The notes below the pieces were generated by a model. That model saw only the letters and a program-made list of their open reading frames with translations, had not been told where the DNA came from and ran no database searches. Below are positions 4,471 to 61,178 of a DNA stretch of 64,000 nt, piece by piece. The position numbers and the translations under genes are program-made. This DNA is from Candidatus Campbellbacteria bacterium RIFOXYC2_FULL_35_25 (GTDB taxonomy: Bacteria; Patescibacteriota; Minisyncoccia; Phycocordibacterales; UBA12079): assembly GCA_001774495.1 (NCBI GenBank), contig MFAE01000006.1, positions 69,356 to 133,355 on the forward strand, in the 5' to 3' direction. Positions within the stretch are counted from its first letter, which is position 1. Every line of letters begins with the position of its first letter.

Positions 4471-5373
4471 ATGGAGAACGTCGCTTACAAACCTTACGAA
4501 GGAAGGACACCTGATTATCAATACCAAAACACGATCAAGCTCATACTTGAACAAGGGGTGAGATCCAAGAGTCAACCTGGTACAGATACCTTAACGGTTC
4601 TGTGTCCGCCAGCAAGCCACTACCGTCTTGATAATGGCTTCCCAATGATTACAGAAAGGAGTGTAAAATCATTTTGGGGACAACCCATCGGAGAAATCTG
4701 TGCATTTGTAAATGGAGTGAGAACACTCAAGGGACTGGAAGAATTTGGCTGTAAGTTTTGGTCACTTTGGGGTACACCTGAAAAATGTGCGAAACGAGGA
4801 TTGGAAGCTGGTGACCTAGGTCCCGGCTCTTATGGAGCAGGATTCCATGATTTTCCTACTGCTGATGGAGGAACTTTTAATCAGTTCCAACATATCATTG
4901 AGCAAATCAAGGAGATTCCTCATTTGAAAACCCATTTCGTCAGCCCTTGGATACCTCAGTTCATCGGCCGAGGCAAAGGAAAACAACAAAAGGTTGTTGT
5001 TGCCCCGTGTCATGGCTGGCTTTATTTCAAGGTGTATGGTGACGAACTCACTACAGTAATGGTTCAGCGTTCGGCTGATTTTCCTGTCGGAGTTCCATCC
5101 AATATGATTCAATATGCTGCTTTAACAATGATGATGGCCCATGCCACCGGGTTAAAGCCTGTTGAATTTATTCACCAACCAATAGATGCTCACGTCTATG
5201 TGGATCAAATTCCGAGAATGAAGGAACTCATCAAGCGAGAACCAAGACCCTTTCCAACAGTAACCATGAATACCGATGTTGATGACTTTTTTGGTTTCAG
5301 GAAAAAACACTTTACACTGGGCGACGATTACAATCCTCACCCAGCAATGAAAGATATTCCAGTAGCAATTTGA
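4471..5373 (+). CDS. thyA: thymidylate synthase (ThyA type)
   Basis: Catalytic PCH (VAPCHGW), REPRP and a C-terminal DYNPHPAMKDIPVAI that aligns with the E. coli ThyA terminus. Asn is present in the FNIASY-equivalent region, indicating dUMP specificity. GC-rich relative to the flanks. Confidence 0.9.
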   Translation: MENVAYKPYEGRTPDYQYQNTIKLILEQGVRSKSQPGTDTLTVLCPPASHYRLDNGFPMITERSVKSFWGQPIGEICAFVNGVRTLKGLEEFGCKFWSLWGTPEKCAKRGLEAGDLGPGSYGAGFHDFPTADGGTFNQFQHIIEQIKEIPHLKTHFVSPWIPQFIGRGKGKQQKVVVAPCHGWLYFKVYGDELTTVMVQRSADFPVGVPSNMIQYAALTMMMAHATGLKPVEFIHQPIDAHVYVDQIPRMKELIKREPRPFPTVTMNTDVDDFFGFRKKHFTLGDDYNPHPAMKDIPVAI

Positions 5374-5390
5374 TAACGGAGGTAAGGGAC

Positions 5391-6332
5391 ATGACCACAC
5401 AAGTATCTATAATTGTGGCCATGTCCCTTAACGGGGTTATAGGTCACAAAAATCAAATCCCATGGTACATACCAGATGACTTAAAATACTTTGCAAAAAT
5501 TACTACAGGACACACTGTGATAATGGGTCGTAAAACTTACGAATCCATAATACAAAAACTTGGTCACCCTCTCAAAGGTAGATTGAGTATAGTCCTCACT
5601 AAGAAAATAAATTACGAGGTGGGGGAAGGATGTTTTGTTGTTGAGTCTTTTGAAGAAGCTTTGAAAATCTCCAGTGGTGAAGTATTTGTCATAGGTGGTG
5701 AGCAAATATATGAATTAGCATTACCGTATGCTGACAAAATATATTTAACCATTGTTGAAGGACATTTCGATGGAGATGTATTTTTCCCAAAAATCAATAA
5801 AAATGACTGGGAAGAGATATGTATAGGCAAAGGGAAGTATGATAATATAAAATACAGTTTTATGAAACTTAAAAGGAAAAAATTTATAGATATCAATCAT
5901 TCCAGAACACCAGAACAAACTGCCATCATGAAAAAAATAGAAGCTGATGGTGTGTGTCCGTTTTGCATGGAAAATTTCAAAAAGTATCACACTAAACCGA
6001 TCATTAAAGAAGGGGTTTGGTGGATGTTGACCGAAAACTTTGTTCCGTACAAAGGAACAAAATTACACTTACTTATCGTCTACAAACATCATGCGGTTAA
6101 ACTTGAGGAAATTGACCCAAAGGCTGGGACAGAACTTGTTGAACTCCTGTCATGGATTGAAAAAAAATACAATCTTGATGGAGGTTCTTTGTTCATGAGA
6201 TTTGGTGAAACCGATTTAACTGGTTCTAGTGTTAACCACATCCACCTACAAATCATCGTCGGAGAAGTCGGTAGATCAAAAGAATCTTCTCCTTTAAGAA
6301 TAAAACTTGGTTACAAAAAAGCAAAAGATTAA
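5391..6332 (+). CDS. folA: dihydrofolate reductase fused to a HIT-superfamily (GalT/Ap4A-phosphorylase-like, HxHxQ) domain
   Basis: N-terminal ~165 aa is DHFR (IVAMSLNGVIG...GRKTYESI...VIGGEQIY). C-terminal ~150 aa carries NHIHLQII and an upstream CPFC. GGAGGT RBS 7 nt upstream of the ATG at 5391. The track ORF starts slightly upstream at 5370. Confidence 0.8.
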   Translation: MTTQVSIIVAMSLNGVIGHKNQIPWYIPDDLKYFAKITTGHTVIMGRKTYESIIQKLGHPLKGRLSIVLTKKINYEVGEGCFVVESFEEALKISSGEVFVIGGEQIYELALPYADKIYLTIVEGHFDGDVFFPKINKNDWEEICIGKGKYDNIKYSFMKLKRKKFIDINHSRTPEQTAIMKKIEADGVCPFCMENFKKYHTKPIIKEGVWWMLTENFVPYKGTKLHLLIVYKHHAVKLEEIDPKAGTELVELLSWIEKKYNLDGGSLFMRFGETDLTGSSVNHIHLQIIVGEVGRSKESSPLRIKLGYKKAKD

Positions 6333-9972: not shown

Positions 9973-10087
9973 AATTTAGATGCTGAACGAGGAGGTAAAG
10001 GAAAATTTTTTGAGACGTATTGCAATACGACGAAAAAAATTTTCCTGATACCAACAAAGTTCGGCGCTAAATTTGGATTATTTAAAT

Positions 10088-11514: not shown

Positions 11515-11538
11515 TCTTTTGGGCGGCCACCGAGAATT
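11515..11538 (-). repeat. 24-nt direct duplicate of the tRNA-His 3' end
   Basis: ttttgggcggccaccgagaattg at 11515-11538 is identical to 11706-11729, which is the 3' end of the tRNA-His gene. Confidence 0.8.
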
Positions 11539-11711
11539 GCCTCCCAGTTCTAAATGAAATTTTCGTCCTGCGGACTCAATTTCATTAAGAACTCTTAGGC
11601 TCGTCGCTCGTATTTTTTCTGCGAAAAAATATACTTCGCTCTTTTCAATTCTCACTAGCCAGCACAAAAATATATTACACAAATACTACCGTATTTATTG
11701 CATTATTTTTG

Positions 11712-11783
11712 GGCGGCCACCGAGAATTGAACTCGGATTGAGGGATCCACAAACCCTAGTGTTACCATTACACCATGGCCGCC
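11712..11783 (-). tRNA. tRNA-His (GTG) with encoded G-1
   Basis: Manual fold: G-1:C73, acceptor GCGGCCA/TGGCCGC, D-stem GTGT/ACAC, anticodon loop TTGTGGA, T-arm CCGAG-TTCAATT-CTCGG. Confidence 0.75.
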
Positions 11784-15308: not shown

Positions 15309-15580
15309 CACAAACAAAAAACAGCACCCGTTAAGGTGCTGTTTTTTGTTTGTGTGGGCGATGAAGAAAAGTCCCTGCGGACTTTTCGTGGGATTCGAAC
15401 AGGCGGAGACATGTTTTGCGAAGCAAAACAGTCGAGCCAAGCCTACGAACACTTTGGTTTTTTAGAGTCTGTAACGAAGTGAAAGATTCTAAAAAAACTT
15501 AGTGATTCGGAGGTCGAATCTGTCGCCCACAAAATCTTAGACCCCGGAACGTTAGTTCTGGGGTCTTTGATTTTGTAGGG
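15309..15580 (+). repeat. tRNA 3'-flank module copy a2 (plus orientation), downstream of tRNA-Val
   Basis: 29-bp perfect palindrome that includes the tRNA 3' end, followed by the hairpin GAAAAGTCC-CTGC-GGACTTTTC, the inverted T-arm fragment GGGATTCGAAC and the hairpin GTTTTGC-GAA-GCAAAAC. A degenerate direct copy of the Val 3' end (ggtcgaatctgtcgcccaca) sits at ~15529-15548. Confidence 0.6.
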
Positions 15581-15589
15581 CGATGAGGG

Positions 15590-15818
15590 ATTCGAACGGC
15601 GCAGGAAAGCAGGAATCGTCCCGCGATTACTAAGTAAATTTTTCACAAGCTCAAATTTACAAAGTATCGCTGGACGTGGCTTGGTTTTTTTCTTCGCTAT
15701 GCTACGTAAAATATGCCTCCGCCATCCGATTCCTAACGAAGAGTGCGTAGGCACTTTTCTCCGAGGGCACAAAACGAAACAAAACCGAAGCTAATAGCTT
15801 CGGTTTTGTTTCGTTTTG
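15590..15818 (-). repeat. tRNA 3'-flank module copy a, downstream of tRNA-Arg(TCT)
   Basis: 27-bp palindrome including the tRNA 3' acceptor, then the conserved GGAGAAAAGTGCC..GCACT.TTCG hairpin and the conserved core GTCCAGCGATACTTTGTAAATTT..TTAGTAATCGCGGGACGATTC. It ends in GCAGGAATCG, duplicating the tRNA 3' end. Confidence 0.7.
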
Positions 15819-15890
15819 TGCCCTCGGCAGGAATCGAACCTACATTAACGGCTTAGAAGTCCGCAGTTCTATCCATTGAACTACGAGGGC
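15819..15890 (-). tRNA. tRNA-Arg (TCT)
   Basis: Manual fold: acceptor GCCCTCG/CGAGGGC, D-arm GTTCAATGGATAGAAC, anticodon loop CTTCTAA, T-arm GTAGG-TTCGATT-CCTGC. Confidence 0.8.
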
Positions 15891-26735: not shown

Positions 26736-26884
26736 ATTATTTATTTTTTAATTAATTTTTTTATTTTAAAATAGGCAATTTTCTGATTCACGACCTTTGC
26801 CACTTAATAATACGCTATTTTTGATATTCCACGTTAAAAAAGACTAACAACTTTTAAGTACACCGAGACCTCTCTGTTGAGAGG

Positions 26885-27071
26885 GTGGGATTCGTCCCGC
26901 AGTTACTAAATAAAATCTTTCGCTTCGCTCAGATTTTATCAAGTACTGCTGGACGCGGTTCACCGAGTCACTTCGCTTCGCTCAGCGTCGGCTCCGCCGT
27001 TCGAATTCCACCCTCACTCCGTTAGCAAATAAAAAAACAACCCCTTGGTCGGGGTTGTTTTTTTATTTGTG
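26885..27071 (-). repeat. tRNA 3'-flank module copy e, downstream of tRNA-Ser
   Basis: 19-bp palindrome (caaataaaaaaacaacccc/ggggttgtttttttatttg) and a diverged conserved core in which the stem ataaaatct/agattttat compensates for the gtaaatttt/aaaatttac stem of other copies. Ends in a 16-nt direct repeat of the tRNA 3' end (gagagggtgggattcg). Confidence 0.65.
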
Positions 27072-27199: not shown

Positions 27200-27300
27200 A
27201 TGACATTTTTACCAAGAGAGGTCGAATATTCGTCCTCCTCCCTTCAGTCGGATTCGAAACAAAATCTTTTGTTTCTCATCCTCTCTGCCACCTCTCCTTT
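27200..27300 (-). repeat. pseudo-tRNA fragment carrying an 18-nt copy of the tRNA-Ser 5' end
   Basis: cctctctgccacctctcc at 27280-27297 duplicates 27141-27158. Contains the inverted T-arm-like GGATTCGAAAC and a hairpin, but no complete cloverleaf. Confidence 0.6.
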
Positions 27301-27849: not shown

Positions 27850-27873
27850 ATTTTTAATCTCAAAAAAAACAAA

Positions 27874-27898
27874 AAGTTGGGTGTCGGACACCCAACTT
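27874..27898. repeat. 25-bp perfect palindrome AAGTTGGGTGTCGGACACCCAACTT (also acts as the mscL terminator)
   Basis: 12-bp stem with 1-nt centre, followed by a T-run. Near-identical copies sit inside argS (1021-1045) and ppaC (50550-50574). Confidence 0.8.
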
Positions 27899-27982
27899 TT
27901 TGTTTTTTCTTCATTTTATGTATAATGAAATTAGAAACAATGAACCTTAGAAAATTAACCATACTTGAAGGAGGGAATCACC

Positions 27983-28727: not shown

Positions 28728-28740
28728 TAAACTCGAAGAG

Positions 28741-28979
28741 ATAGAATCGTCCCACGATTACTAAGTAAATTTTTTCGTGCCTCAAAATTTACAAAGTATC
28801 GCTGGACATATTTCTTTCGTTTCAGCTTTTTTTATTAAGGTTGAAATCAAAAGCCCGCTGTCTCGCTTCGCTCGACATGCCCCGTCTTTCGATTCCTGAC
28901 GAAAAGTGCGCAGGCACTTTTCTCCGAGAGGACAAAATTAAAAGAACAGATTGAAAACCAATCTGTTCTTTTAATTTTG
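28741..28979 (-). repeat. tRNA 3'-flank module copy b, downstream of tRNA-Arg(GCG)
   Basis: 28-bp palindrome including the tRNA acceptor 3' strand, the hairpin GAAAAGTGC-CTGC-GCACTTTTC, and the conserved core ...GTCCAGCGATACTTTGTAAATTTTGAGGCACGAAAAAATTTACTTAGTAATCGTGGGACGATTC. Confidence 0.7.
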
Positions 28980-33894: not shown

Positions 33895-36800
33895 TTAGAA
33901 TTCTCCTCCGTTGATAGGACAATCCGTAGGACAATTGAATGGGGTTTCTCCTTTTTCACAAGAGTAGTTGATGCAGAAAGCATTTTCGGTAGTAGGAGTG
34001 CCGTCAGTACAGCTGTCGTCTAGACCATCAATAAGACCGTCACCATCGTTGTCTAGCCCGTCGTTGCATTCGGTAATTATAGGGGTTTCTGTGTTATCAG
34101 CGACATTGCTACAGTCAGGATCTCCTGTTCCGTCGGTTTTGTAATCTATTTTCCCGTCAAAATCATTATCAATACCATCGCTACATTGTGTGGATCCGTC
34201 AGACTCATCATTGTCTAAATAGGAAGTACAACCGGAGTCAGCTCCATAATCTTTATTTCCGTCACTGTCATTATCGACGCCATCACTACATTGGGTAATA
34301 CCAATACTACCAACTGTTATTATAGACTCTTTGGTTACCCCACTCGTTGCTTTTAACTTTTCTTTTCCTGGCGCTTTTGGAGTAATTACTCGATTAGGAC
34401 CAACCATTGCTGAGTCAAAAGCATCATTGGTAACGATTGTGCTTGTCCAAGTAACAGAAGAAGTAACATCTCCAGTACTATCACCGCATCCTAGATCTGC
34501 GTTAAAACAAGCTCGAACATTGATAGGCACTCCGATAACCGCAACCTGATCTCCTTCAAACAAAATACCCGAGTTGCAAGAATCTTTACATATTTTCAAG
34601 GTGTTGGATGCTGGGACGGAATCAAACCAAACACAAACCGGTTCGATACTGTTGCCTGCTGTACTTTGTGCAGTCGCTGGATCCGCGTAAGCATTGTGAA
34701 AGGCCTCAACATAATTTACGCCTGCTGGTACAACAAAATTAGTGTTAACAACTCCTGACCAAGATGCCTCATTTACACCGTCGAGTAAGTCGAGAAGGGT
34801 GGGGTTCGTTTGTGCTAACAATCCTGTAGGAGGGAAAATCGTGGTGTTGTTAGATCTTAGGTTAACATGAAATTTTTCCCAAAATTGCCCAATGTTGGAT
34901 GAGCGGGTAAGGCCTCCATCATAAATCATCAAGCTTACGTTGTAATTTCCTGGAGGGACTGCACGAGAAATAATTTCACTAGCACTGTACACAGAACCGG
35001 AGGAACTAGCTCCTTGGAGGAAATCGACCACAACATCACCAGGCCCAGCAACGAAAGGACAGGCCGGTTTAGTGTATGCGCTTTCATGGTCATCCAAAGA
35101 ATTCGTACAATCAGGGTCCCCCGTTCCGTTAGATTTGTAATCTATTTTCCCGTCAGGGAACAATTCATTATCAATACCGTCATCGCATTCTACCGTGGGG
35201 TTTTGTTCGCTGGTATCTCCAGGACCAGAGCACCCTGGGTCGGCTAGGTCAGTTAAACCATCTCCGTCGTCATCAACACCATTATTACATTGGGTGCTTC
35301 CGACAATAGCAACTTCCACTGTTTTGTATGGGGTAGATTCACCCTGAGTATTTAAACACTTTAAGCCATAAGTTGTCGTAACAACAGGGGAAACAACTTC
35401 GGAATAACTCGTCCCTAGCATAGTCGCAACTGGACCAATCCATCCTGTATAAGTACATATAAGCATGGAGTCCGTAGTATCGATTTTCCACCTCAAATTA
35501 GCACTGCCCCCCGCAACAATAGGGCTATCAGTGGTCCAAAAACTTACATCAGGAGTAGTTTCATTCCCATCCCAAACACTTTTACACCCCGGATCGGTTG
35601 GATAATCTACTTTACCATCACCATCGTCATCCAAACCATTATCACACGCTGGGCCTGAAGCATTTTTCTCGCTAGGGTCTGTCGTGGCGGAACAACCCGG
35701 GTCACGTAACGCAGGAACAATATTGTAATCGGTTAAACCATCTCCATCGTTATCGATGCCGTCGCTACATTCCGTGGCAGATACAATAGTGACATCAATA
35801 GCACTACTTGCGTTGCTAGTGCTGTTTGCTACATTATAGACGATAGTAGCAGTACACCCAAGATACTGAGCTTGTGCAAGTTCCACTACGCTGTTTCCTG
35901 GACTGTTTTGAGCGGGAGTCCAAACTCCACCTGTGCCAGCGCCAGGACATGTGCCAGAAAGATAATATGTAGCACCCCACGATGTACCGCCGGTCGAGCT
36001 CCATTGTTTAGTATTACTTTGTCCAACAACAAGCGTTTTGCTCTTTAATCCGTCAATAGTAATAGAAGCAGTAACCGGAACAGGAGCAGTACATGTATTT
36101 GTATTTTTGCTCCACACCCCATTCACGCACGAATAACTACACGATCCACTATAACCAGAAGTACAAGTACCAACAGAACCAGAAGAGACTGAGGGAAGAA
36201 CACAACTACTGAGTGAAGTGGCTGGGCAGAAAACAGGAGGGGGTGGAGGATTTTGAGCTTTTACCCGTATTGAATCAATAAGTTTCGTTGACCCATCCCA
36301 TAATTCATAATAAGTTCCACAAGTCGAATCTACATTGTTATCCACGTAACTTCCGCCCAACTTACCTGTTGCTACAAAAAACAAATCAGGATATACACGC
36401 TCTAGAACACCAAGATTAGAAGCATTATATTCCCACGAAAGGGTGGATGAACAAACGGTATTGCCACCAACAAGAGTACATGGATTGGGGGTGGCTTTAA
36501 GAATTCCCTTATTTAATGTAGGAGCGGTACAATAATTTGGATTAACCGTACAAGTCTTGTATTTAGCGGATCCTGTAAACCCGCTAAGTGTACAGGTTCG
36601 AGTTTCGGTCTCACAAGGAGTTCCAAAATTAACAAACCAATCTTTATAGGGTGCTATTGTCCCTCCAAGTCCGCGATGTAAAGTACCGCCTGTTGGACCA
36701 TAAGTAAAAACACATTGAAAATAGCGCACTTCATATGGCACAAGAATTGATTTACCATTACCAGTAAAGGTAGCCTCAAAATATTTTCCACTACCATAAC

Positions 36801-38415
36801 CAGGAGCACCATCGAGATTCATTGGTGCCGGTATATAAACTCTTTTATAAACATTCGTACCGCCCCATAGAGATTGATGTACCAATATATCCTTTGTCTG
36901 TCCATTGGCGGTTACGCTCAAGTTTATATCGCCAGAATAAAGATTACTACACCAGTTTGCAGTAGCATTCCCATATATCTCCATAGTGTCTCCTTGAGTA
37001 TAAGGTCCGCCCATACTAACTGAATATGTCACTTCCCCATTAGTAAAGGTGTCTGCCTGCACCAAACTTCCGCTCGATAAGAAAATCCCGCCAGCCAGCA
37101 AAAGAAAGATTGCGACCGATAATCCTTTTCTTTTTTTGAAAAATATCATCATAAGAAAAAAAATCACAAAAATAATGACAAGAATGATGCCATATTTAAA
37201 AAATTGGCTTAACTGAGATTGCCCCGCTGGGACATTTTGACTTTCAATAGTAAAATCTTTTTTGTCCAAAATATTACCTTTATCATCCTGAATCGCAACG
37301 GCTATATTTGGATTTTGACAATTTACATTTATAGGCAATTCATAATCAACCGCGAATGAAGCTTGGTCCATTTCTTTTTGTACAGTCGCGCAGACTTTAT
37401 TTTGCGTATTTTTAATAGCAATATTAATCAACATCTTGCCATTATCTGTTTCCCCTAATCTAGAATCAGGGAAATTGTCGGCTGAAGAGGCCCAGAGTAA
37501 CGAGACTTTGGCTATGTCGCCTTTTTGATAATAGTCTTTGTCTAGGCGTAAATTTTGAATAGTGGCACTCAATCCACGAAGCACATAATGAAAAGTAACT
37601 TTATTAGAAATGTTTTGATTTTGGTCATTTACAAACTCTAAAACGACCTCATAAGCTTGAGGAGCTTTCGCTTTGGGTAGGTTAAAAGAAAGCTGTTTTT
37701 TTTCTTTCTTACCCAACGTCACAGTTGGTTGATTTTCCAAATTAGTGTTCACCTCTTGACCAAAAGTAGTACGCCAATAGGTTTTGAACTGTGGAGTAAT
37801 AGTAATTGGATTGTCGGCGTGATTTGTTGCGTCGCAAATAGCAATGAGTGTTTCTTCTGATGTGATGTCCACCCCTTGGCTTGATGTGTATTTTTTATAT
37901 CCGGCCTCTCCTTTCACAGTTAGATAACAAGAATTTTGGTCTATTTCTACATACTGATTATTTCCGTTAAGAATTGCTTTGCCGGGGTTAGTTAAAGCCA
38001 ACATGAGTCCATTTTTATTTTTGGCAACCAGCCAGATTTCAAACTCTCCACTTAGATAACTGGGAGCATTATAGTCAATTTCTTTATGCACAGTTTGATT
38101 TTCATTCAGTGTAACTGATTCATCATAAATTTTTTCATCCACAATAACTTGTGACCCCGCTACATTTTTAATCAATTGAACAGCATATGCTACATCCGGC
38201 TGAACATTAACACGATTGGAAAGATCAAAAGACAACTTAAAAGAATTTCCCTCTTGAGAAACTATCTGAGCACTGTAGATATTAACTGTCGCCACCACAA
38301 CGAATTCTTGCGAGTCTGGATTTAAGGGAGGAGTTTCCTCTACTTGTGCAGAGGCAAAGGATGTTAAGCCTAGAACAATTATGGAAAAGGCTACAATTAA
38401 TTTTAATTTCTTCAT
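33895..38415 (-). CDS. giant (1506 aa) Cys-rich surface protein with Ca-binding CxDGxDNDxDG repeats
   Basis: Signal peptide. An internal TM and a signal-peptide-like segment follow at about residue 410-450. Multiple CSDGIDNDGDGLTDY repeats. Ends in ...NCPTDCPINGGEF. Paralogous domains are shared with the next gene. Confidence 0.6.
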   Translation of the reverse strand: MKKLKLIVAFSIIVLGLTSFASAQVEETPPLNPDSQEFVVVATVNIYSAQIVSQEGNSFKLSFDLSNRVNVQPDVAYAVQLIKNVAGSQVIVDEKIYDESVTLNENQTVHKEIDYNAPSYLSGEFEIWLVAKNKNGLMLALTNPGKAILNGNNQYVEIDQNSCYLTVKGEAGYKKYTSSQGVDITSEETLIAICDATNHADNPITITPQFKTYWRTTFGQEVNTNLENQPTVTLGKKEKKQLSFNLPKAKAPQAYEVVLEFVNDQNQNISNKVTFHYVLRGLSATIQNLRLDKDYYQKGDIAKVSLLWASSADNFPDSRLGETDNGKMLINIAIKNTQNKVCATVQKEMDQASFAVDYELPINVNCQNPNIAVAIQDDKGNILDKKDFTIESQNVPAGQSQLSQFFKYGIILVIIFVIFFLMMIFFKKRKGLSVAIFLLLAGGIFLSSGSLVQADTFTNGEVTYSVSMGGPYTQGDTMEIYGNATANWCSNLYSGDINLSVTANGQTKDILVHQSLWGGTNVYKRVYIPAPMNLDGAPGYGSGKYFEATFTGNGKSILVPYEVRYFQCVFTYGPTGGTLHRGLGGTIAPYKDWFVNFGTPCETETRTCTLSGFTGSAKYKTCTVNPNYCTAPTLNKGILKATPNPCTLVGGNTVCSSTLSWEYNASNLGVLERVYPDLFFVATGKLGGSYVDNNVDSTCGTYYELWDGSTKLIDSIRVKAQNPPPPPVFCPATSLSSCVLPSVSSGSVGTCTSGYSGSCSYSCVNGVWSKNTNTCTAPVPVTASITIDGLKSKTLVVGQSNTKQWSSTGGTSWGATYYLSGTCPGAGTGGVWTPAQNSPGNSVVELAQAQYLGCTATIVYNVANSTSNASSAIDVTIVSATECSDGIDNDGDGLTDYNIVPALRDPGCSATTDPSEKNASGPACDNGLDDDGDGKVDYPTDPGCKSVWDGNETTPDVSFWTTDSPIVAGGSANLRWKIDTTDSMLICTYTGWIGPVATMLGTSYSEVVSPVVTTTYGLKCLNTQGESTPYKTVEVAIVGSTQCNNGVDDDGDGLTDLADPGCSGPGDTSEQNPTVECDDGIDNELFPDGKIDYKSNGTGDPDCTNSLDDHESAYTKPACPFVAGPGDVVVDFLQGASSSGSVYSASEIISRAVPPGNYNVSLMIYDGGLTRSSNIGQFWEKFHVNLRSNNTTIFPPTGLLAQTNPTLLDLLDGVNEASWSGVVNTNFVVPAGVNYVEAFHNAYADPATAQSTAGNSIEPVCVWFDSVPASNTLKICKDSCNSGILFEGDQVAVIGVPINVRACFNADLGCGDSTGDVTSSVTWTSTIVTNDAFDSAMVGPNRVITPKAPGKEKLKATSGVTKESIITVGSIGITQCSDGVDNDSDGNKDYGADSGCTSYLDNDESDGSTQCSDGIDNDFDGKIDYKTDGTGDPDCSNVADNTETPIITECNDGLDNDGDGLIDGLDDSCTDGTPTTENAFCINYSCEKGETPFNCPTDCPINGGEF

Positions 38416-38615: not shown

Positions 38616-41600
38616 TTAGAATTCTCCAAATAATGTAAAGCAGTCGGTGAAACAATTAAGGAAGTTTTCTCCTGCTTCACAAATATTGTTTCCACAAACA
38701 CTTGGTGGGGGGGCGCAGGTTGTGGCTGTGCAGTCGGAGGCACATCCGCCAGGAGGAACACATGTGGCTCCGTTGTTTACTCCTAGGTCGCATTCTTCTG
38801 TCCCTTGTTTAATACCGTCTCCGCACTGGTAAAGACCTAGCATATAAATCTCACCACCAAGAGAATAATCAGAACTAACATTGTCCTCCAATATATAAAA
38901 GGAAAAATCACCGAATTCATTATAAGCAGTATTGGTATATCTTATTTTCTGAATGCCTCCATCATTTATAACGGATGTCGTCCCATAATGAGCTGGCGTT
39001 GCAGTAATGGTGACCCCAGTTGTGTGATTGTAGATGTCATTTGCTAATACATTGATATCAATTGTTTCTCCTTCGTTTATATAAACGACATCTGGGAGGG
39101 CCTTAACATTTGGTGACTCTTTATCATCAGTAGGAGAATCACAATCAGAGTCTTGCATGTCATACAATCCATCTTCATCATCATCAATTCCGTTATCACA
39201 TTGAAGATTACTCAACTCACTATCGTCGGTGGACGATGAACAACCTGGATCAATTGCTTTAAATAAAGCACAGATTGGGATAACGCTGTTAGCACTTGAA
39301 GTATCAAGATAAGCTGTATGAATAGACCTAATATTGGTTATTCCGTCAGGAACAGAGAAATTAGTATTAACTGTTCCTATCCAAATATCGCTAACAACAT
39401 TATCGGCTAAGTCTGGAGTGCTGGCGGTTGTTTTTACTTGCCCACTATCATTTCTTAAGGAAACATAAAACTTTTCATTGGGTTGAGTGACGCTTACACG
39501 AGTACTGTAACCATCGTAAGACATTAATTTAACATTATAATTACCTGAGGGGATGGCTTTAACAACTTGTTCATAGTAAGGAATAGTATCAGACCGGAGT
39601 CCTTTTGTGAAATTAAAAAGAACGTCCTTACTCCCAGCCACAAAAGGACAAGCTGGTTTAACAGGAGGATCGGGAGGAACAACTACGGGATCAGCATCTA
39701 CCTTAAAATCAGTGTACCCATCTCCGTCGTTATCTATACCGTCATTACACTGAGTGGGTACTGTGATATTGGCTTCTTTCGGTGTTCCGCCATTAGACAC
39801 TGTTAATTTTTCTGTTCCTACCGCATTAACTGTAATTACTTCATTAGGAGAAACTGTAGCAGAATCAAAAACATCATTAGGATTAACTTGGCTTCCCCAA
39901 ATAGCAGAAGTTGTTGTAATATCACCAGTAGCACTACCGCACCCAGAATCAAGATTAAAACAAGCTCGAACATTTATAGGTGTTCCAATTGTTGCTGTTT
40001 GGTTTCCTTCAAACAAAATCCCCGAGTCACAAGAATTTTTACATATCTTTAATGTGTTTACAGCAGTGGAACAAGTAGCACATTTTGGATTTTTAGAGTC
40101 AGATGGGTTTTCACCAAATTTTAACCAACCAATAACATCGCCCCCCCAAGCATACCCAAAAATATCTTTAGTATCATCATCAAAATAAACACCATAAGGC
40201 TTGGGAACAGCTTCTGTAGTTTCCCCACTAAATTTTATCCAACCGTCCCAGCCGTTAAGAGAACCGGATTTCCCAACCATAGAATAAATATCGGAGGACT
40301 TCTCTCCTCGATTTAAACAATTACCAAACGTATCACATGATATAAATTCGCCACTGTCTAAGCCAATCCACAGTTCGTCATCTAAAACAGCCATAGAATA
40401 CATCCCTCTGTTTGTTTCTTTTGTGCCAAGATTGGTACAGTTTCCAGATAAATTACAAGAAAGTAAACCATCATACAGCATCCCGAGCCATAATTTATTA
40501 TCAAATACTTCCATCGACTTAACAGAGTCTCCTTTGTCTCCAGCATTGACGCAACTCCCCAAGGAATCACATGATTGAAGAACTCCATCACCCATACCAA
40601 TCCATAATTTATTATTAAATACTGCCATATTCTCGATGGTGCTTACCCCCTTACTTCCATGATTAACACAGTTCCCGGATGAATCACAAGACAGCAAAAC
40701 CCCACCAAAAGATCCAAGCCATAACTTGTTTGCAAACACTTTCATTCCGAGTATATTTCCTCCTTTAGATCCATGGTTCACACAGATTCCCGATGAATCA
40801 CAGGACCTTAGTGTGCCATCTGCCCCACCTACCCAAACCTTGTTATTAAACAATTCTATTCTACCAACGGCATTAACTGTATTTATGTACGAGACACAAT
40901 GCCCAAACATATCACAAGAATATAACTTACCGCCCACAGGTACCGCCGCCCAAATCTTATTGTCAAAAATTTTTATATCTTTCATAGAAGAACCCCCCAC
41001 AAGGTATTCCTCGCACCCACCTAAAAAGTTACACTTTCTCAATGTTCCGTTCCCCTGTGCTGTCCACAACTCACCAACAAAAGGAGAAACCTCAACAACA
41101 ACATCAATAGAATTTCCTTTGTCGCCATGATTAGTACAGCTTCCTAGTGAGTTGCATGATTGTAAAGTTCCATCACTGTGACCAAGCCATAATTTGTTGT
41201 TAAACTCTGACACATTATTTATACGGGAACCCTTAATTCCATGATTAGTGCAGACTCCGGATGAGTTACACGACCGTAGCTCCCCAGAATCCTGGCCAAG
41301 CCATAATTTATTATCAAAAACCTCCAAAGAAGTTATAGGACTTCCTTGAAGAGTGTCATTAGCATTTGTAATTTCTTCCTCAAACTCAGTATACGACCGT
41401 AACCGGCCATCCTCTTGCCCTATCCATAATTTATTATCAAAAATCTCTATTGCGTTAATTGATGCCCCTCTATCGCCTAAGTTAAGGCAGGAACCGTCAT
41501 TATAACATAACTGCAAAATACCATCAGATTGCCCGAGCCAAAGATAATTCTTAAACACTTTCATAGCCTTAATTGCCACTCCTTTATCGCCGTAATTTAC

Positions 41601-42317
41601 ACAATTTCCCAATCTATCACAACCCAATAAACTACCATCACTCTGTCCAACCCATAACTTTCCATTATACTCTAGTAAACTACTGGCGGAAGAACCAAGA
41701 TATCCATAGCTAGTAAGCCCACCTAATGTACCAATAGATTCGAAGTGCCCTGTTTTAAGACCTACCCATATTCTGTTATTAAATATTTTGGCGCTATCTG
41801 GACTTCCTACTAAAGATTCAAAAAAAGTACATGACCCTGTGGAGTCACATTTTTGTATAATTCCTCCCTCTTGGATAATCCAAAGTTTATCTCCACCCCA
41901 ATCACCAGCAAAAGCAGCAGTCTCGGTTCCGATTGGGTCACCAGCTACAGCCCTCGCCCAACCAGTCAACCTACCGTCGGACTCAAGCCAAACCCCATGC
42001 TGTGGATTTTCTGGAAAACCAAAACCACCATCACTTGGGTTAAGATCAATCCAACCAATGTTACTGCTCCAAGCATAAGAACCAGGAGACACTTCCCCCA
42101 CCTTTAAATTCATTCCGTAATCTGTCGCAGTTACTTCACTGCTGGAATTAAGACTAACCCAACCAATATTGCCACTCCATGCAAAACCAGTGGTATTTTG
42201 GGAAGAACCAGCATCAACATTTAAAACATGACTTGTAAAATTAAAGAAAAAAACAAAAACGGCTACAAAAATAAAAGCCTTTAATATTTTATTATTTTTC
42301 AAATTTTTAATTAACAC
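38616..42317 (-). CDS. giant (1233 aa) surface protein with about 12 beta-propeller-like repeats and Ca-binding repeats
   Basis: Signal peptide; repeated FDNKLWLGxxDGxLxSCxxxGxCxNxGxKG units; CNDGIDNDGDG motif. C-terminus ...NCFTDCFTLFGEF is homologous to the C-terminus of the 1506-aa protein. Confidence 0.6.
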   Translation of the reverse strand: MLIKNLKNNKILKAFIFVAVFVFFFNFTSHVLNVDAGSSQNTTGFAWSGNIGWVSLNSSSEVTATDYGMNLKVGEVSPGSYAWSSNIGWIDLNPSDGGFGFPENPQHGVWLESDGRLTGWARAVAGDPIGTETAAFAGDWGGDKLWIIQEGGIIQKCDSTGSCTFFESLVGSPDSAKIFNNRIWVGLKTGHFESIGTLGGLTSYGYLGSSASSLLEYNGKLWVGQSDGSLLGCDRLGNCVNYGDKGVAIKAMKVFKNYLWLGQSDGILQLCYNDGSCLNLGDRGASINAIEIFDNKLWIGQEDGRLRSYTEFEEEITNANDTLQGSPITSLEVFDNKLWLGQDSGELRSCNSSGVCTNHGIKGSRINNVSEFNNKLWLGHSDGTLQSCNSLGSCTNHGDKGNSIDVVVEVSPFVGELWTAQGNGTLRKCNFLGGCEEYLVGGSSMKDIKIFDNKIWAAVPVGGKLYSCDMFGHCVSYINTVNAVGRIELFNNKVWVGGADGTLRSCDSSGICVNHGSKGGNILGMKVFANKLWLGSFGGVLLSCDSSGNCVNHGSKGVSTIENMAVFNNKLWIGMGDGVLQSCDSLGSCVNAGDKGDSVKSMEVFDNKLWLGMLYDGLLSCNLSGNCTNLGTKETNRGMYSMAVLDDELWIGLDSGEFISCDTFGNCLNRGEKSSDIYSMVGKSGSLNGWDGWIKFSGETTEAVPKPYGVYFDDDTKDIFGYAWGGDVIGWLKFGENPSDSKNPKCATCSTAVNTLKICKNSCDSGILFEGNQTATIGTPINVRACFNLDSGCGSATGDITTTSAIWGSQVNPNDVFDSATVSPNEVITVNAVGTEKLTVSNGGTPKEANITVPTQCNDGIDNDGDGYTDFKVDADPVVVPPDPPVKPACPFVAGSKDVLFNFTKGLRSDTIPYYEQVVKAIPSGNYNVKLMSYDGYSTRVSVTQPNEKFYVSLRNDSGQVKTTASTPDLADNVVSDIWIGTVNTNFSVPDGITNIRSIHTAYLDTSSANSVIPICALFKAIDPGCSSSTDDSELSNLQCDNGIDDDEDGLYDMQDSDCDSPTDDKESPNVKALPDVVYINEGETIDINVLANDIYNHTTGVTITATPAHYGTTSVINDGGIQKIRYTNTAYNEFGDFSFYILEDNVSSDYSLGGEIYMLGLYQCGDGIKQGTEECDLGVNNGATCVPPGGCASDCTATTCAPPPSVCGNNICEAGENFLNCFTDCFTLFGEF

Positions 42318-45479: not shown

Positions 45480-46260
45480 GCATTACCCGAGTACCCGAGG
45501 CAAGGCCTCGAGGCCTTGCCTCGGGTGAATAAAACTATATAATATAAACATGGGAATTAGAAATATAATATTTTCGGAAGGAGAATTTTATCATATTTAT
45601 AATAGGGGTACTGATAAAAGAATTATTTTTGACGAGAAAAGAGATTATCTTCGCTTTATAACCTTACTTTATCTTTGTAATAATACTGAAAAAATCCACA
45701 TAAATGAGTATGCTAAAAAAGGGTTTAATTTACTGTCTCTTTTAAAAGTACAGAAGGAAAACACATTAGTCGAAATCGGGGCCTATTGCTTAATGCCGAA
45801 CCACTTTCATTTATTAATTCGTGAAAAAGTTGAAGGTGGTATTAGTAATTTTATGCAAAAATTAGCAACAGCTTATTCTATGTATTACAACAGTAAGTAT
45901 CAAAGAACGGGTTCTTTGTTTGAAGGAAAATTTAAAGCTACTCATGTGGCTAAAGATAATTATTTAGAATATCTATTTGCATATATACATTTAAACCCTG
46001 TTAAACTAATTGATTCTAAATGGAAAGAAAATGGAATTAAAGATAAAAAGAAAACCAAAAAATTTTTAGAAAATTATGAATACTCCAGTTATTTAGATTT
46101 TATTGGTAAAAACAATAGAATTGAAGAGAAAATATTAGACGGAAAAAACTTTCCCAATTATTTTGAAACTTTCGAGGAATTTAATAAGTTTGTAGATGAG
46201 TGGTTGAGTTTTGAAGAAGAAAAGTAAGGCAAGGCCTTACAAATTAGTACGGTCCCCCTT
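45480..46260 (+). mobile_element. tnpA: IS200/IS605-family-like element (RAYT/Y1 HUH transposase) flanked by GC-rich hairpins
   Basis: CDS 45550-46227 (225 aa) carries HFHLLI (HUH) and catalytic-Tyr-region YIHLNPV motifs. Left hairpin cccgaggcaaggcc-tcga-ggccttgcctcggg at 45496-45527. Right hairpin aaggcaaggcctt at 46229-46244. Confidence 0.65.
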
Positions 46261-55282: not shown

Positions 55283-55372
55283 TCTTTTTACAAAAAAAAC
55301 AAAAACCGCTATCAAAATTTGATAGCGGTTTTTGTTTTTTTAAAGCCCTACCAATCTCGCGATTAGCAGGGC

Positions 55373-56090: not shown

Positions 56091-56440
56091 CAAAAATGTA
56101 AAACCGGAGCGACTAGCTCCGGTTTTACATTTTTGTGCGGGTAGGGAGAATCGGAAGACGGAGGCGGTATACAAGATAAATTTTATGGAGCGTAGCGAAA
56201 TAAAATTTAGGCTTGTCGCCGAGTCCGGGGAGGAAGTTCTTAACAAAAATGAGTCCATAGGACGAAATTTTTGTTTAGAAACTTGACCCCGATTCTACCT
56301 GCGTACTTTTCGTGGAGAATCGGAAGGCGGAGTCATGTTTTGCGAAGCAAAACAGACGAGCCGGGGCCGAAGGTTCTTAATATTTTAAAGCCCATAGGGC
56401 GAATAAAATATTTAGAAACCTGTGGACGATTCTCCCCACC
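56091..56440 (+). repeat. tRNA 3'-flank module copy f (plus orientation), extended form
   Basis: 26-bp palindrome including the tRNA 3' end, two GAGAATCGGAAG(A/G)CGGAG units, CTGCGTACTTTTCGTGGAGAATCG and the hairpin GTTTTGCGAAGCAAAAC. Ends in GACGATTCTCCCCACC, similar to the tRNA 3' end. Confidence 0.65.
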
Positions 56441-56486
56441 AAAGCGAATAGCTCTTTTTTTGTTTTCTATTTCTTGTTCCTCCCAA

Positions 56487-57707: not shown

Positions 57708-57887
57708 CAAAAAGAGAAAGGGCACCAATTATTTGGTGTTTTTTCTTTTTTTTAGGAGTGCCGGGATTCGAACGGAACTTTTGCGCCAATGGTCTGAGCA
57801 AAAGTCCGTGGCTCTGGAGGAAAATATTTTCTATATCGCTCTGCGATTGAAAATATTTGGGGGAAGAGGAATCCCGGCACTCCGACA
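57708..57887 (+). repeat. tRNA 3'-flank module copy g (short form)
   Basis: Terminator hairpin, the inverted T-arm fragment GGGATTCGAACGG, and a terminal 18-nt direct repeat of the tRNA-Pro 3' end (aatcccggcactccgaca). Confidence 0.7.
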
Positions 57888-58663: not shown

Positions 58664-59268
58664 TTTTTACTTTAGTGATTTTACAATTTAAAAAATAAAT
58701 AATATTAAATATAATAACATACCAAAAAATGTTTTAAACAACCACAAGTTAACTTAGTACAAAATTTTCTAATAAAAAGTGTCACGTGTAACTTAACCAA
58801 ACTCAACGAGAAATACAAAATTTTTAATAATTTTTAATCAAAAATTAAAGAAAAAATACCAAAAACATTTCACGTGAAACACCAAAAAGGTTTCTACGAA
58901 ACCTTTTTGGTGTTTTTATAAACTTTTTTCACGGAAAATACTGTCTTTAACTGTGTCTTTTTCCTAAATAAGCTTATTTTAAGCCCTATTTACAAGAAAA
59001 AAACTAATTCTAAAAGACAGAAATAGTCTGTTTTAATGGACAAGTTATCCTTTCTATACACAGAGTTATCCACAGTTTTGCACAAAATTAGCTATATTTT
59101 GGGTAAAAATATCTAAAATAATAGGGTGAATATCTATAAATAAGGGTTATTTAGGGTGGGGATAATCGATTGCAAGCCATTAATCACTTAGGCAGAGAAT
59201 CGGCCACAAATCGCCAAGTCTTTTGTTTACAAGAGAAAAGAATCAACCCCAGTTCTAAATTCAGATGT

Positions 59269-59517
59269 GCGGGTGGGGAGAATCGTCCCGCGATTACTAA
59301 GTAAATTTTTTCGTACCTCAAAATTTACAAAGTATCGCTGGACATATTTCTTTCGTTTCAGCTTTTTTTATTAAGGTTGAAATCGAAAGCTCGCTGTCTC
59401 GCTTCGCTCGGCATGCTCCGCTGTTCGATTCTCCACGAAAAGTACGCAGGTACTTTTCTCCACCTCGCACTAAAAACCAAAAAAGAACCTTGAAGAAAAG
59501 GTTCTTTTTTGGTTTTG
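59269..59517 (-). repeat. tRNA 3'-flank module copy c, downstream of tRNA-Gly(TCC)
   Basis: Palindrome including the tRNA 3' end, the hairpin GAAAAGTAC-CTGC-GTACTTTTC, and the conserved core. Ends in GGGACGATTCTCCCCACCCGCAC, a direct duplicate of the tRNA 3' 17 nt with one mismatch. Confidence 0.7.
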
Positions 59518-60663: not shown

Positions 60664-60810
60664 AGAAGAGCCCACAGCTTATAGTTTACAGCTCACAGCC
60701 GATAGCTGTAAACTAATTAAATAAATTTTAACCTAAAGACTCGGCCCTCCAAGTCACTAAGTATATCTTCGTGCTTCGCACTCCAAAAACTTAAGTGTCT
60801 GTAGAAGGAT

Positions 60811-61001
60811 TCGTCCCGCGGTTACTAAGTAAATTTTTTCGTGCCTCAAAATTTACAAAGTATCGCTGGACGCGGCGCGGCGACAAGCCTAAATTTTCCT
60901 TAGAAAATTTATCTTATATACCACCTTGCGCCGTTCGAATCCCTCTAAGGACTACAAAAATATACAAAACCAGAGCTATTCGCTCTGATTTTGTATTTTT
61001 G
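60811..61001 (-). repeat. tRNA 3'-flank module copy d, downstream of tRNA-Arg(TCG)
   Basis: Palindrome ggactacaaaaatatacaaaaccagagc/gctctgattttgtatttttgtgtcc including the tRNA 3' end, plus the conserved core ...GTCCAGCGATACTTTGTAAATTTTGAGGCACGAAAAAATTTACTTAGTAACCGCGGGACGAATCC. Confidence 0.7.
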
Positions 61002-61073: not shown

Positions 61074-61178
61074 GTATATCACAAATTGAATTATACATTA
61101 AAAAGTTCAAAAATCTATCAAAAACAAAAAGAGATGCATATGCACCTCTTTTTGTTTTTGTAATTATTTTGAATAAAT

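Follow-up and report, generated by a model that had tools for sequence, protein, structure and literature searches.

What are the structured, non-coding segments that lie behind almost every tRNA gene in a 64,000-nucleotide stretch of Candidatus Campbellbacteria bacterium RIFOXYC2_FULL_35_25, one of the Parcubacteria (contig MFAE01000006.1, positions 69,356 to 133,355)? This stretch, which we call the window, carries ten tRNA genes, located by ARAGORN and Rfam at the very positions given in an earlier reading made without database searches (hereafter the sequence-only reading). That reading had listed nine copies of a recurrent module at eight of the ten genes. The listed copies are present, but one at tRNA-His had been overlooked, so that nine of the ten tRNAs are occupied. 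Its broader claims of a duplicated tRNA 3' end around a small insert, with no integrase nearby, and of a near-universal colonisation of tRNA genes hold as well. We find that the modules form a Parcubacteria-specific family of small, non-coding structured repeats in tRNA 3' flanks, always on the strand of their tRNA, as had been noticed, and mostly behind its terminator.

Anatomy and fold of the module

Read on the tRNA strand, each 3' flank has the same order: the tRNA, its native palindromic terminator, a segment X', an optional hairpin unit (hp), two hairpins (P2 and P3) and a segment X. The terminator takes up the first ~45 nt after the tRNA, where an A-rich spacer, a GC hairpin and a T-run form a perfect palindrome. 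The features of an intrinsic terminator, a G+C-rich hairpin and a T-run at a gene 3' end, are confined to these ~45 nt, and the module, about 130-250 nt long and non-coding, lies beyond them. The long palindrome reaching into the acceptor strand with which the module had been thought to begin is real (in the Arg-TCT copy its arms of 33 nt are 100% complementary), but it is the native terminator and not the start of the module, being present at empty sites of relatives and behind ordinary genes too. X' is complementary to nt ~53-74 of the tRNA; in its own direction it passes through the complements of the acceptor strand and of the T-stem 3' strand into GAWTCGAAC. The palindrome and an "inverted T-arm" had both been seen, but as separate parts; they belong to one continuous inverted copy, which pairs with the terminal repeat. 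A purine-rich junction, (A/G)GCGGAG, follows X' and leads to the variable hairpin P2 and the conserved hairpin P3, whose type A form reads GTCCAGCGATACTT...TTAGTAATCGCGGGAC and has a symmetric CUUAG/CUUAG internal loop. GAWTC then opens into X, a direct copy of the T-stem 3' strand, the acceptor 3' strand, the discriminator and C74 (nt 57-74). X' and X pair as the closing helix P1, and single-sequence folds of all ten window copies yield one architecture, in which P1 closes a P2/P3 three-way junction. The T-loop positions are themselves paired, GAWTC with GAWTC, and lead into the three-way junction; there is no T-loop or elbow. In the tRNA GAWTC is preceded by GGTTC, in the module by GGGAC.

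The hp is a 25-nt unit composed of AG, a 9-bp stem, a CUGC loop, the return stem and CGK. About two-thirds of the copies have it, at the precise point of X' where the acceptor part meets the T-stem part. Its previously described form, GAAAAGTNC-CTGC-GNACTTTTC, occurs four times, exclusively within modules and with the compensatory changes that had been reported, at a chance expectation of 0. Nine hp-less copies have GTAG at -14, which is also readable as the complement of ...CAC plus a bulged A, and small insertions at the acceptor/T boundary are found in X too, for example ATCTATTT in L003 and L025 (L-numbers label stretches from other contigs or genomes). A stacked helix of acceptor (7 bp) and T-stem (5 bp) that ends in the discriminator is retained in roughly half of the copies, the outer acceptor part being decayed in the others. 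At least four core families share the design X'-core-X. Type C cores (L011 Arg-TCG, L033 His) and type D cores (L017 Arg-CCT, L028 Lys-CTT) both have a long P1 from the tRNA end. As these cores are unrelated or highly diverged, the design is wider than the family that was originally noticed. In JAAXWR01 (Yonathbacteria; L011, L029, L036, L040) a conserved CCAGCYCYACTTTCATAA stands after X, and a close variant, CCAGCCCTACATTCATAA, after the tRNA-Phe 3' end; this motif could be a shared trailer motif or another element.

How well does comparison among copies bear out this fold? Using a 21-nt pattern from the P3 3' end, we searched 185,579 bacterial and archaeal species, each represented by one genome, and then ran a covariance model on the window and the 40 matching loci (344 kb, E below 1e-3). 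RNAalifold predicted 26 pairs from 27 copies, 15 of them with compensatory changes. Over 71 model-aligned copies, 93.3% of the cells are paired and 23 of the 26 pairs change on both sides; none of 500 shuffles did as well, and pairing falls to 30-47% when the partner columns are slid. The hp is 98.9% paired with eight of nine pairs compensatory, in a set that was pre-selected for containing a hairpin. Thus, alignments and shuffles agree with the earlier claim of a conserved secondary structure with real covariation. Conservation across distant Parcubacteria extends to unpaired nucleotides, namely a GAAC junction, a GGAG/CGAG loop, the CUUAG/CUUAG loop and the CUGC loop.

The fold also has a preferred strand. 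With RNA parameters the sense strand of the tRNA gives the better fold of the two in 65 of 71 copies (by 7 kcal/mol on average, p = 4e-11), with DNA parameters in 69 of 71, and individual copies reach fold z-scores of -7 to -8.5. Counts of G·U against A·C pairs, taken as a further strand test, do not discriminate (69 vs 57). The motif GCGNAGC, which like d(GCGAAGC) forms a very stable DNA mini-hairpin, recurs in apical loops of the modules (e.g. 15410-15425, 59380-59400), with ten sense and no antisense occurrences in 2.2 kb of modules and eight in 124 kb outside. No convincing hammerhead, K-turn or loop E motif was found when the junctions were read by eye, and a promoter and terminator scan around the modules gave no consistent promoter or downstream terminator.

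tRNA-specific arms and their turnover

From where do the arms derive their sequence? Among the window tRNAs, direct and inverted copies match nt 62-73 of their own tRNA at up to 12/12 positions, compared with an off-diagonal mean of 5.3-5.4. A terminal direct repeat of the own tRNA had been asserted for every copy; this is borne out except that Arg-GCG and Arg-TCT keep merely 6-9 nt, GATTC plus the T-stem part. Across loci, the bases past GGGACGAWTC copy the upstream tRNA, be it Pro, Ser, Lys, Val, Gly, Trp, Arg, Glu, Tyr or Ala. Among 58 arms of each kind, 27 X' and 32 X arms have an acceptor part that matches at no fewer than 7 of 8 positions, where 3% is expected at random. X follows the lineage-specific substitutions of its tRNA, and unusual T-loops (GAGTC, GAGCC, CAAGT) are mirrored on both arms. 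The boundaries between specific and shared sequence therefore fall inside T-loop-derived sequence.

The arms vary in extent. X ends most often at nt 73 +1 to +2 (21 of 64 copies), reaches 9-30 nt or more into the trailer in eight copies, as in tandem units, and is reduced to the T-stem part alone in ~35. Direct repeats most commonly measure ~18-19 nt (nt 57 to 74/75) and range from 5 to >47 nt. All ten window tRNA genes leave CCA unencoded and continue from the discriminator into C and an A-run (e.g. ...GCAC followed by AAAA); X copies of window tRNAs mostly stop at this C or at the next A. Positions at which the tRNA has a non-Watson-Crick pair reveal the strand of origin: X' is the complement of the 3' strand in ten cases, a copy of the 5' strand in five and neither in three. 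We considered the module as a decayed copy of a whole tRNA gene, with X' stemming from the 5' strands, and rejected it on these informative positions.

Whereas the arms differ from tRNA to tRNA, the core and the hp, which itself sits between two tRNA-specific segments, are nearly identical at different tRNAs within one genome. One copy is chimeric in its arms: at 5242-5399 (-) of L024, X' matches the adjacent tRNA-Arg-TCG, and the terminal repeat GAGTCCTACCGGGCGTAC resembles the 3' end of tRNA-Lys-TTT, which suggests an exchange between modules of different tRNA loci.

How widespread is the family? All 40 stretches matched by the 21-nt pattern are from Patescibacteria: Campbellbacteria (including the complete genome CP011215), Yonathbacteria, Paceibacterota and metagenome-assembled genomes (MAGs) labelled Saccharibacteria. 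The element is accordingly restricted to the Candidate Phyla Radiation (CPR). About 33 of the 41 matches have a tRNA on the same strand, 127-560 nt upstream, whose 3' end is copied by the bases after GGGACGAWTC. The covariance model, which the sequence-only reading had proposed as a check together with a wider search, recovers 78 copies, every locus being patescibacterial, and 70 of them follow a same-strand tRNA at a distance of no more than 700 nt and copy its 3' end; the remaining eight are mostly at locus edges or by an undetected or degenerate tRNA. These modules are conserved over some two dozen assemblies from different MAGs. Among 97 tRNAs with enough flank, 58 have a model match and 12 more have copies of their own 3' end around cores that the model does not recognise (random expectation 0.4-1.5%), and about a quarter are empty. 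Rfam (15) at gathering threshold reports nothing but tRNAs; permissive settings add chance matches to microRNA hairpins (E up to 5) and no intron, ribozyme, tmRNA or small RNA model. In viral contigs the core pattern has no match, and 20 matches to a 16-mer junction pattern are without tRNAs or model matches and were judged chance. A full-text literature search returned no description of such an element.

Occupancy changes among relatives. Empty sites, which had been suggested as a test, exist and consist of the tRNA and its palindromic terminator alone (L004 His, Leu and Val; L010 Val). Among orthologous tRNAs, that of His has a module in the window but not in L004, Leu-GAG has one in L033 but not in the window or L004, and Val-TAC has none in L004 and L010. 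Similarity among cores is independent of tRNA identity: the nearest neighbour of a core is at a different tRNA in 61 of 69 cases, and more than 80% core identity is found in 8.7% of pairs from the same genome and different tRNAs, compared with 0% of pairs from the same tRNA in different genomes. Near-identical cores are shared, for example, by Arg-GCG and Gly-TCC in the window and by L035 Arg and L036 Ser, each pair belonging to a single genome. The window and L005 can be compared at the orthologous Gly-TCC locus, where they have the same hp variant and different cores, and at Pro, where the module content is altogether different. The variants of P2, P3 and hp recombine as blocks independent of one another. 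Tandem arrays are present in L014 and at the window Gly-GCC locus, and 5'-truncated remnants are common distal to intact copies. Most copies have a terminator between tRNA and module; some, in L014, L032 and L040, have none.

The copies in the window

The bounds of the window copies were set by hand. The His module (11515-11667, -; tRNA 11711-11782) has a degenerate X', P2, a type-B P3 and X = CAATTCTCGGTGGCCGCCC, a full 19-nt direct repeat with a 12/12 direct match to nt 62-73 of its own tRNA; it folds at -55.1 kcal/mol, compared with -41.6 for the antisense strand, and the model matches it at 11522-11657 with 42 bits. At tRNA-Val, the native palindromic terminator (15310-15352, +) forms a perfect ~29-bp stem with the tRNA 3' end and X'. 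Val module 1 (15353-15531, +; fold -80.5 kcal/mol, 35.9 bits) consists of the acceptor part of X', hp (15366-15387), the T part of X' with GATTCGAAC, P2, a type-B-like P3 and X = GAATCTGTCGCCCAC. It is followed at 15532-15605 (+) by a second terminator-like palindrome (15532-15574) and a truncated second Val X' (GTAGGGCGATGAGGGATTCGAACGGCGCAGG), which adjoin the Arg-TCT module on the opposite strand. The latter (15605-15772, -; 114.7 bits) combines an hp (15738-15759) and a type-A core with an X cut down to GATTCCTGC; its terminator palindrome (15773-15817, -) has arms at 15761-15793 and 15795-15827 that are fully complementary and include the acceptor strand and X'.

The Ser module (26875-27027, -; 97.4 bits; terminator 27028-27070) is hp-less and ends with X = GAATCCCACCCTCTC; its core is of type A with a fully compensated P3 stem, precisely as had been described. 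What had been taken for a pseudo-copy at 27200-27300 is a scrambled fragment 5' of tRNA-Ser and not a module. Its contents, read on the tRNA strand, are 18 nt copied from the tRNA-Ser 5' end (GGAGAGGTGGCAGAGAGG), a short hairpin, the sequence TTCGAATCC, which resembles a T-loop, and part of GGACGAAT; the whole looks like recombination debris. In the Arg-GCG module (28736-28935, -; 88.3 bits) an hp (28901-28922), a long P2 and a type-A P3 precede an X that is decayed past GATTCT, and the terminator is at 28936-28978.

Two modules stand in tandem at Gly-GCC. The first (56134-56304, +; 43.5 bits; terminator 56092-56133) is hp-less with a type-B core; the second (56292-56442, +; 85.8 bits) is fused to it within half an hp and has an hp variant and an X (GATTCTCCCCACC) of the Gly-TCC kind. 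The Pro module (57753-57886, +; terminator 57709-57752) has a P1 of ~19 bp, folds at -64.1 kcal/mol and matches its own tRNA 3' end at 11-12 of 12 positions. It had been said to fall outside the conserved core, and indeed its core is of a different family, scoring 17.4 bits with the model. The Gly-TCC module (59267-59472, -; 102.8 bits; terminator 59473-59516) comprises hp (59437-59458), a long P2, a type-A P3 and X = GATTCTCCCCACCCGCAC, and beyond it lie two 5'-truncated remnants (59182-59266, -), each a P3 3' strand followed by GATTCT.... The Arg-TCG module (60797-60955, -; 116.6 bits, z = -7.2; terminator 60956-61000) is hp-less, with TTTTGTAG before X', a GGCGCAAGGTGG-type P2 and a type-A P3; a 5'-truncated remnant of a further module (60733-60796, -) retains the P3 3' half and then GAGTCTTTAGG.

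Several observations concern the surroundings of these copies. Same-strain contigs from independent assemblies (L070, L071) stop inside or at the edge of modules, at window positions 56091, 56337 and 59309, as is expected for repeats, which fragment assemblies. Perfect palindromes whose A-tract and T-tract pair over their full length also end ordinary genes (55293-55341, 27864-27908, 61106-61173 and 9999-10046; arms 22-39 nt), and this style of bidirectional terminator is genome-wide. The genes scanned around the modules are housekeeping genes: those for arginyl-tRNA synthetase (ArgRS), thymidylate synthase, NusG, L11, L19, pilus assembly proteins, RuvA and a Mur ligase, and further NusA, trigger factor, ClpP, RNase Y, MscS/MscL and a two-component system. 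Elsewhere in the window, two very large open reading frames (33895-38415, -, 1506 aa; 38616-42317, -, 1233 aa) have no or faint Pfam matches (WD40-like domain, bacterial Ig domain).

Possible origins and related systems

How might such modules come to lie at one tRNA gene after another? We tentatively favour a non-autonomous genetic element, selfish or semi-domesticated, that would have been inserted or rebuilt at tRNA genes via the universal T-loop sequence; to us this is a serious possibility that stops a little short of being probable. We envision a scenario whereby the element enters, or is rebuilt, through the conserved T-loop sequence GTTCGAWTC (complement GAWTCGAAC), which would serve as entry or switch point. 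The tRNA would remain undamaged, and its 3' end would be found again beyond the insert as X, in the manner of an attR or a long target duplication. X' might arise as an extension of the terminator palindrome if the tRNA end were copied by fold-back or template switching. Recombination at the T-loop-derived boundaries might then exchange cores among tRNA loci, and also P2, P3 and hp individually, and recombination between direct repeats could produce either clean loss, leaving empty sites, or tandem arrays. Because a terminator separates tRNA and module in most copies, transcription of the module is expected to be weak at most.

Several points weigh against this reading. We know of no insertion mechanism that writes tRNA-specific inverted and direct arms around a hairpin that is shared and yet flanked by tRNA-specific segments. 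Scanning the neighbour genes, we saw no integrase, transposase or reverse transcriptase adjoining any copy, and the insert has no coding capacity. Same-strain contigs with an identical neighbour protein revealed no insertion polymorphism, all being 100% identical. As a mobilising enzyme, the transposase of the REP-associated tyrosine transposase (RAYT) kind encoded in the window, considered below, is unsupported and a lead only, since its gene flanks in three genomes show palindromes unrelated to the module hairpins. Conserved unpaired nucleotides are more typical of a protein-bound functional RNA than of junk, and the position of hp, exactly where the tRNA body leaves the acceptor/T stack, points to tRNA mimicry. 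Finally, concerted evolution by gene conversion, together with loss through direct repeats, could mimic what we describe as mobility. The candidates offered by the sequence-only reading, a mini-integrative or MITE-like element (MITE, miniature inverted-repeat transposable element), a co-transcribed non-coding RNA or a decoy, are not settled by the evidence.

Might the module instead serve the host? A useful non-coding RNA could be made from the tRNA transcription unit, by read-through or, at copies that have no terminator before them, by co-transcription. P1 would mimic the acceptor/T-stem minihelix of the adjacent tRNA, with hp in place of the tRNA body. The product would be processed by RNase P, RNase Z and the CCA-adding enzyme, and P2/P3 would bind a protein or act as effector. 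We regard this as possible, if rather unlikely. Such an RNA agrees with the invariable tRNA strand, the better sense fold of 65 of 71 copies, the z-scores of -7 to -8.5 and the strong covariation with its conserved junction and loop nucleotides. It also agrees with the tRNA-like order of P1, acceptor (7 bp) and then T-stem, with the commonest end one or two nucleotides past the discriminator (21 of 64), with hp at precisely the acceptor/T boundary, and with the copies of L014, L032 and L040 that follow their tRNA without a terminator. A strong terminator nevertheless precedes most copies, and in more than half the core is intact but the acceptor part is gone from X or from X'. The absence of a T-loop, the empty quarter of tRNAs, the variable occupancy among relatives and the interchangeable cores of several families likewise fit poorly, and mimicry alone would not need identity with the neighbouring tRNA. 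The modules might also act as guards or guides, as RNAs specific to one tRNA that bear ~20 nt of its 3' end in both sense and antisense form, against mobile elements that integrate at tRNA genes.

It is also conceivable, and we deem it unlikely, that the element retargets itself: a structured core, of RNA or single-stranded DNA (ssDNA), would land at a T-loop and have both arms templated from the 3' end of that tRNA, so that in read-through it would appear as a T-loop "intron" with a spare 3' exon. To our knowledge, target-templated rewriting of element ends has no precedent in any transposon, integrative element or intron.

A more literal intron-like insertion into the T-loop seems improbable to us. 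The distal X would be an alternative 3' exon, and the ~200-250 nt of X-terminator-X'-core would be removed at the two junctions of C with GAWTC, possibly as a rod-like circle that re-enters T-loops as RNA or DNA copy. In this model the layout of the locus would equal the circle [X-terminator-X'-core] opened at nt 56/57, and the context shared by both junctions (GGTTC or GGGAC before GAWTC) would be in keeping with it. The minimum-energy fold of a tRNA-Gly-TCC and module co-transcript (-134.5 kcal/mol, z = -8.6) is in fact strand-swapped, the tRNA 3' half pairing with X' through the terminator and the tRNA 5' acceptor strand with the distal X, as the model would predict. The host lineage is also suggestive, as group I introns are common in Patescibacteria tRNA genes, at anticodon-loop position 35/36 (bioRxiv 10.1101/2025.07.03.662931). 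On the other hand, none of the known ribozyme or intron models matches, the core falls short of the size of a group I or group II intron, splicing is not needed to complete the tRNA gene, and many copies are missing the full X; no sign of a splicing endonuclease or ligase emerged, nor was one looked for.

Movement in trans as ssDNA hairpin elements, akin to REPINs (hairpin-forming pairs of repetitive extragenic palindromic, or REP, sequences) or palindrome-associated transposable elements (PATE), is more doubtful still. The genome's Y1 (HUH) transposase, a RAYT or an IS200-type TnpA, would act on them, hairpins and a 5' guide tetranucleotide directing cleavage. A RAYT-like Y1 (HUH) tyrosine transposase of 225 aa is encoded at 45550-46227 (+), with Pfam Y1_Tnp at E 2.7e-11 and the motifs NHFHLL and YIHLNPV, and belongs to a protein family widespread in Parcubacteria; its score with the NCBIfam model for REP-associated tyrosine transposases is below the cutoff (45 vs 80 bits). 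The apical loops rich in GCGNAGC on the sense strand, the better sense fold under DNA parameters (69 of 71) and GTAG before X' in nine hp-less copies might be expected of such hairpins. Yet RAYT-like genes bear their own genome-specific palindromes, unlike any module hairpin. Those in the window (45494-45525 and 46225-46239) contain GGCAAGGCC, a motif found nowhere else in the window, and the thousands of homologs in Parcubacteria (55-68% identity) each have one genomic context with genome-specific flanking palindromes. Moreover, REP and PATE ends are constant and the module arms tRNA-specific, and IS200/IS605 elements insert without target duplication.

That the modules are ordinary lineage-specific terminators with chance similarity, and no distinct element, is hardly credible: the first ~45 nt past each tRNA are a typical hairpin with T-run, and ordinary genes too end in perfect A/T-tract palindromes, but the 130-210 nt beyond are conserved with covariation over some two dozen assemblies, own-3'-end copies are far above chance, and empty sites keep the terminator without the module.

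What would follow if a family of this kind is at work? Roughly 25-40 copies of ~200 nt in ~0.75 Mb would place ~1% of minimal genomes in a family absent from Rfam. tRNA finders and gene callers do not report the modules, and the modules break metagenome assemblies. If mobile, the element would acquire target-matched arms in a way used by no known transposon or integrative element, and would explain rearrangements of CPR tRNA loci. If it acts as an RNA, tRNA genes would have a partner throughout the lineage, in organisms with an almost unexplored RNA biology, and there would be a natural scaffold for displaying any tRNA acceptor/T helix.

With which known systems does the module compare? Integrative elements that target tRNA genes leave an attL/attR duplication of the tRNA 3' end and cross over in the T-loop. 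As with these, the tRNA is preserved, the insert lies between direct repeats that span T-loop to tRNA 3' end, older tandem copies decay away from the tRNA, and relatives have empty sites. Unlike these, the module measures 130-250 nt, has no integrase or cargo and occupies almost every tRNA; it adds an inverted copy of the tRNA end, and one core is found at several tRNAs with re-specified arms. An inverted arm, and tRNA-specific arms around a shared hp and core, are not what plain integration with target duplication yields. The attL/attR interpretation accounts for the direct repeat and the empty sites, but not for the inverted own-tRNA copy and the sharing pattern of arms and cores. With MITEs, REPs and REPINs the module has in common that it is small, non-coding, multi-copy and hairpin-forming, lies behind genes or terminators and has no enzyme of its own, with a RAYT-like gene in the genome. 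In contrast to MITEs, its inverted arms are copied from the adjacent tRNA instead of being constant, and no autonomous parent element was found. In contrast to REPs and REPINs, it occurs at tRNA 3' ends only, the RAYT-flanking palindromes are unrelated, and its interior is a three-way junction supported by covariation; and unlike PATE of the IS200/IS605 type, it has a duplication and its hairpins differ from those by the Y1 gene.

Similarities to structured RNAs are equally partial. Plant mitochondrial t-elements and mascRNA, the tRNA-like RNA of MALAT1, are excised by tRNA-processing enzymes. Like these and like small RNAs from tRNA 3' trailers (3' external transcribed spacers, 3'ETS), the module has an acceptor/T-stem-like helix ending at the discriminator, on the sense strand of the tRNA unit. 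Unlike them, it has a ~100-nt junction domain in place of the T-loop, a helix made of the neighbouring tRNA's own stem sequence and, in many copies, no acceptor part. Class C (IIC) group II introns and the group I introns of Patescibacteria tRNA genes resemble it in their site, behind an intrinsic terminator (IIC) or in tRNA sequence, in being structured RNA and in their intron-rich host lineage, but the module is far too small, matches no intron or ribozyme model and leaves the tRNA gene uninterrupted. For each of the closest systems at least one defining feature that we tested is absent: the integrase of integrative elements, the constant inverted repeats of MITEs or the repeat beside the RAYT gene of REPINs, the T-loop of tRNA-like processing elements, and a match to an intron model. 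The element is therefore filed under none of them. It is a new lineage-wide family of structured elements tied to tRNA 3' ends, which we regard as a new kind of element.

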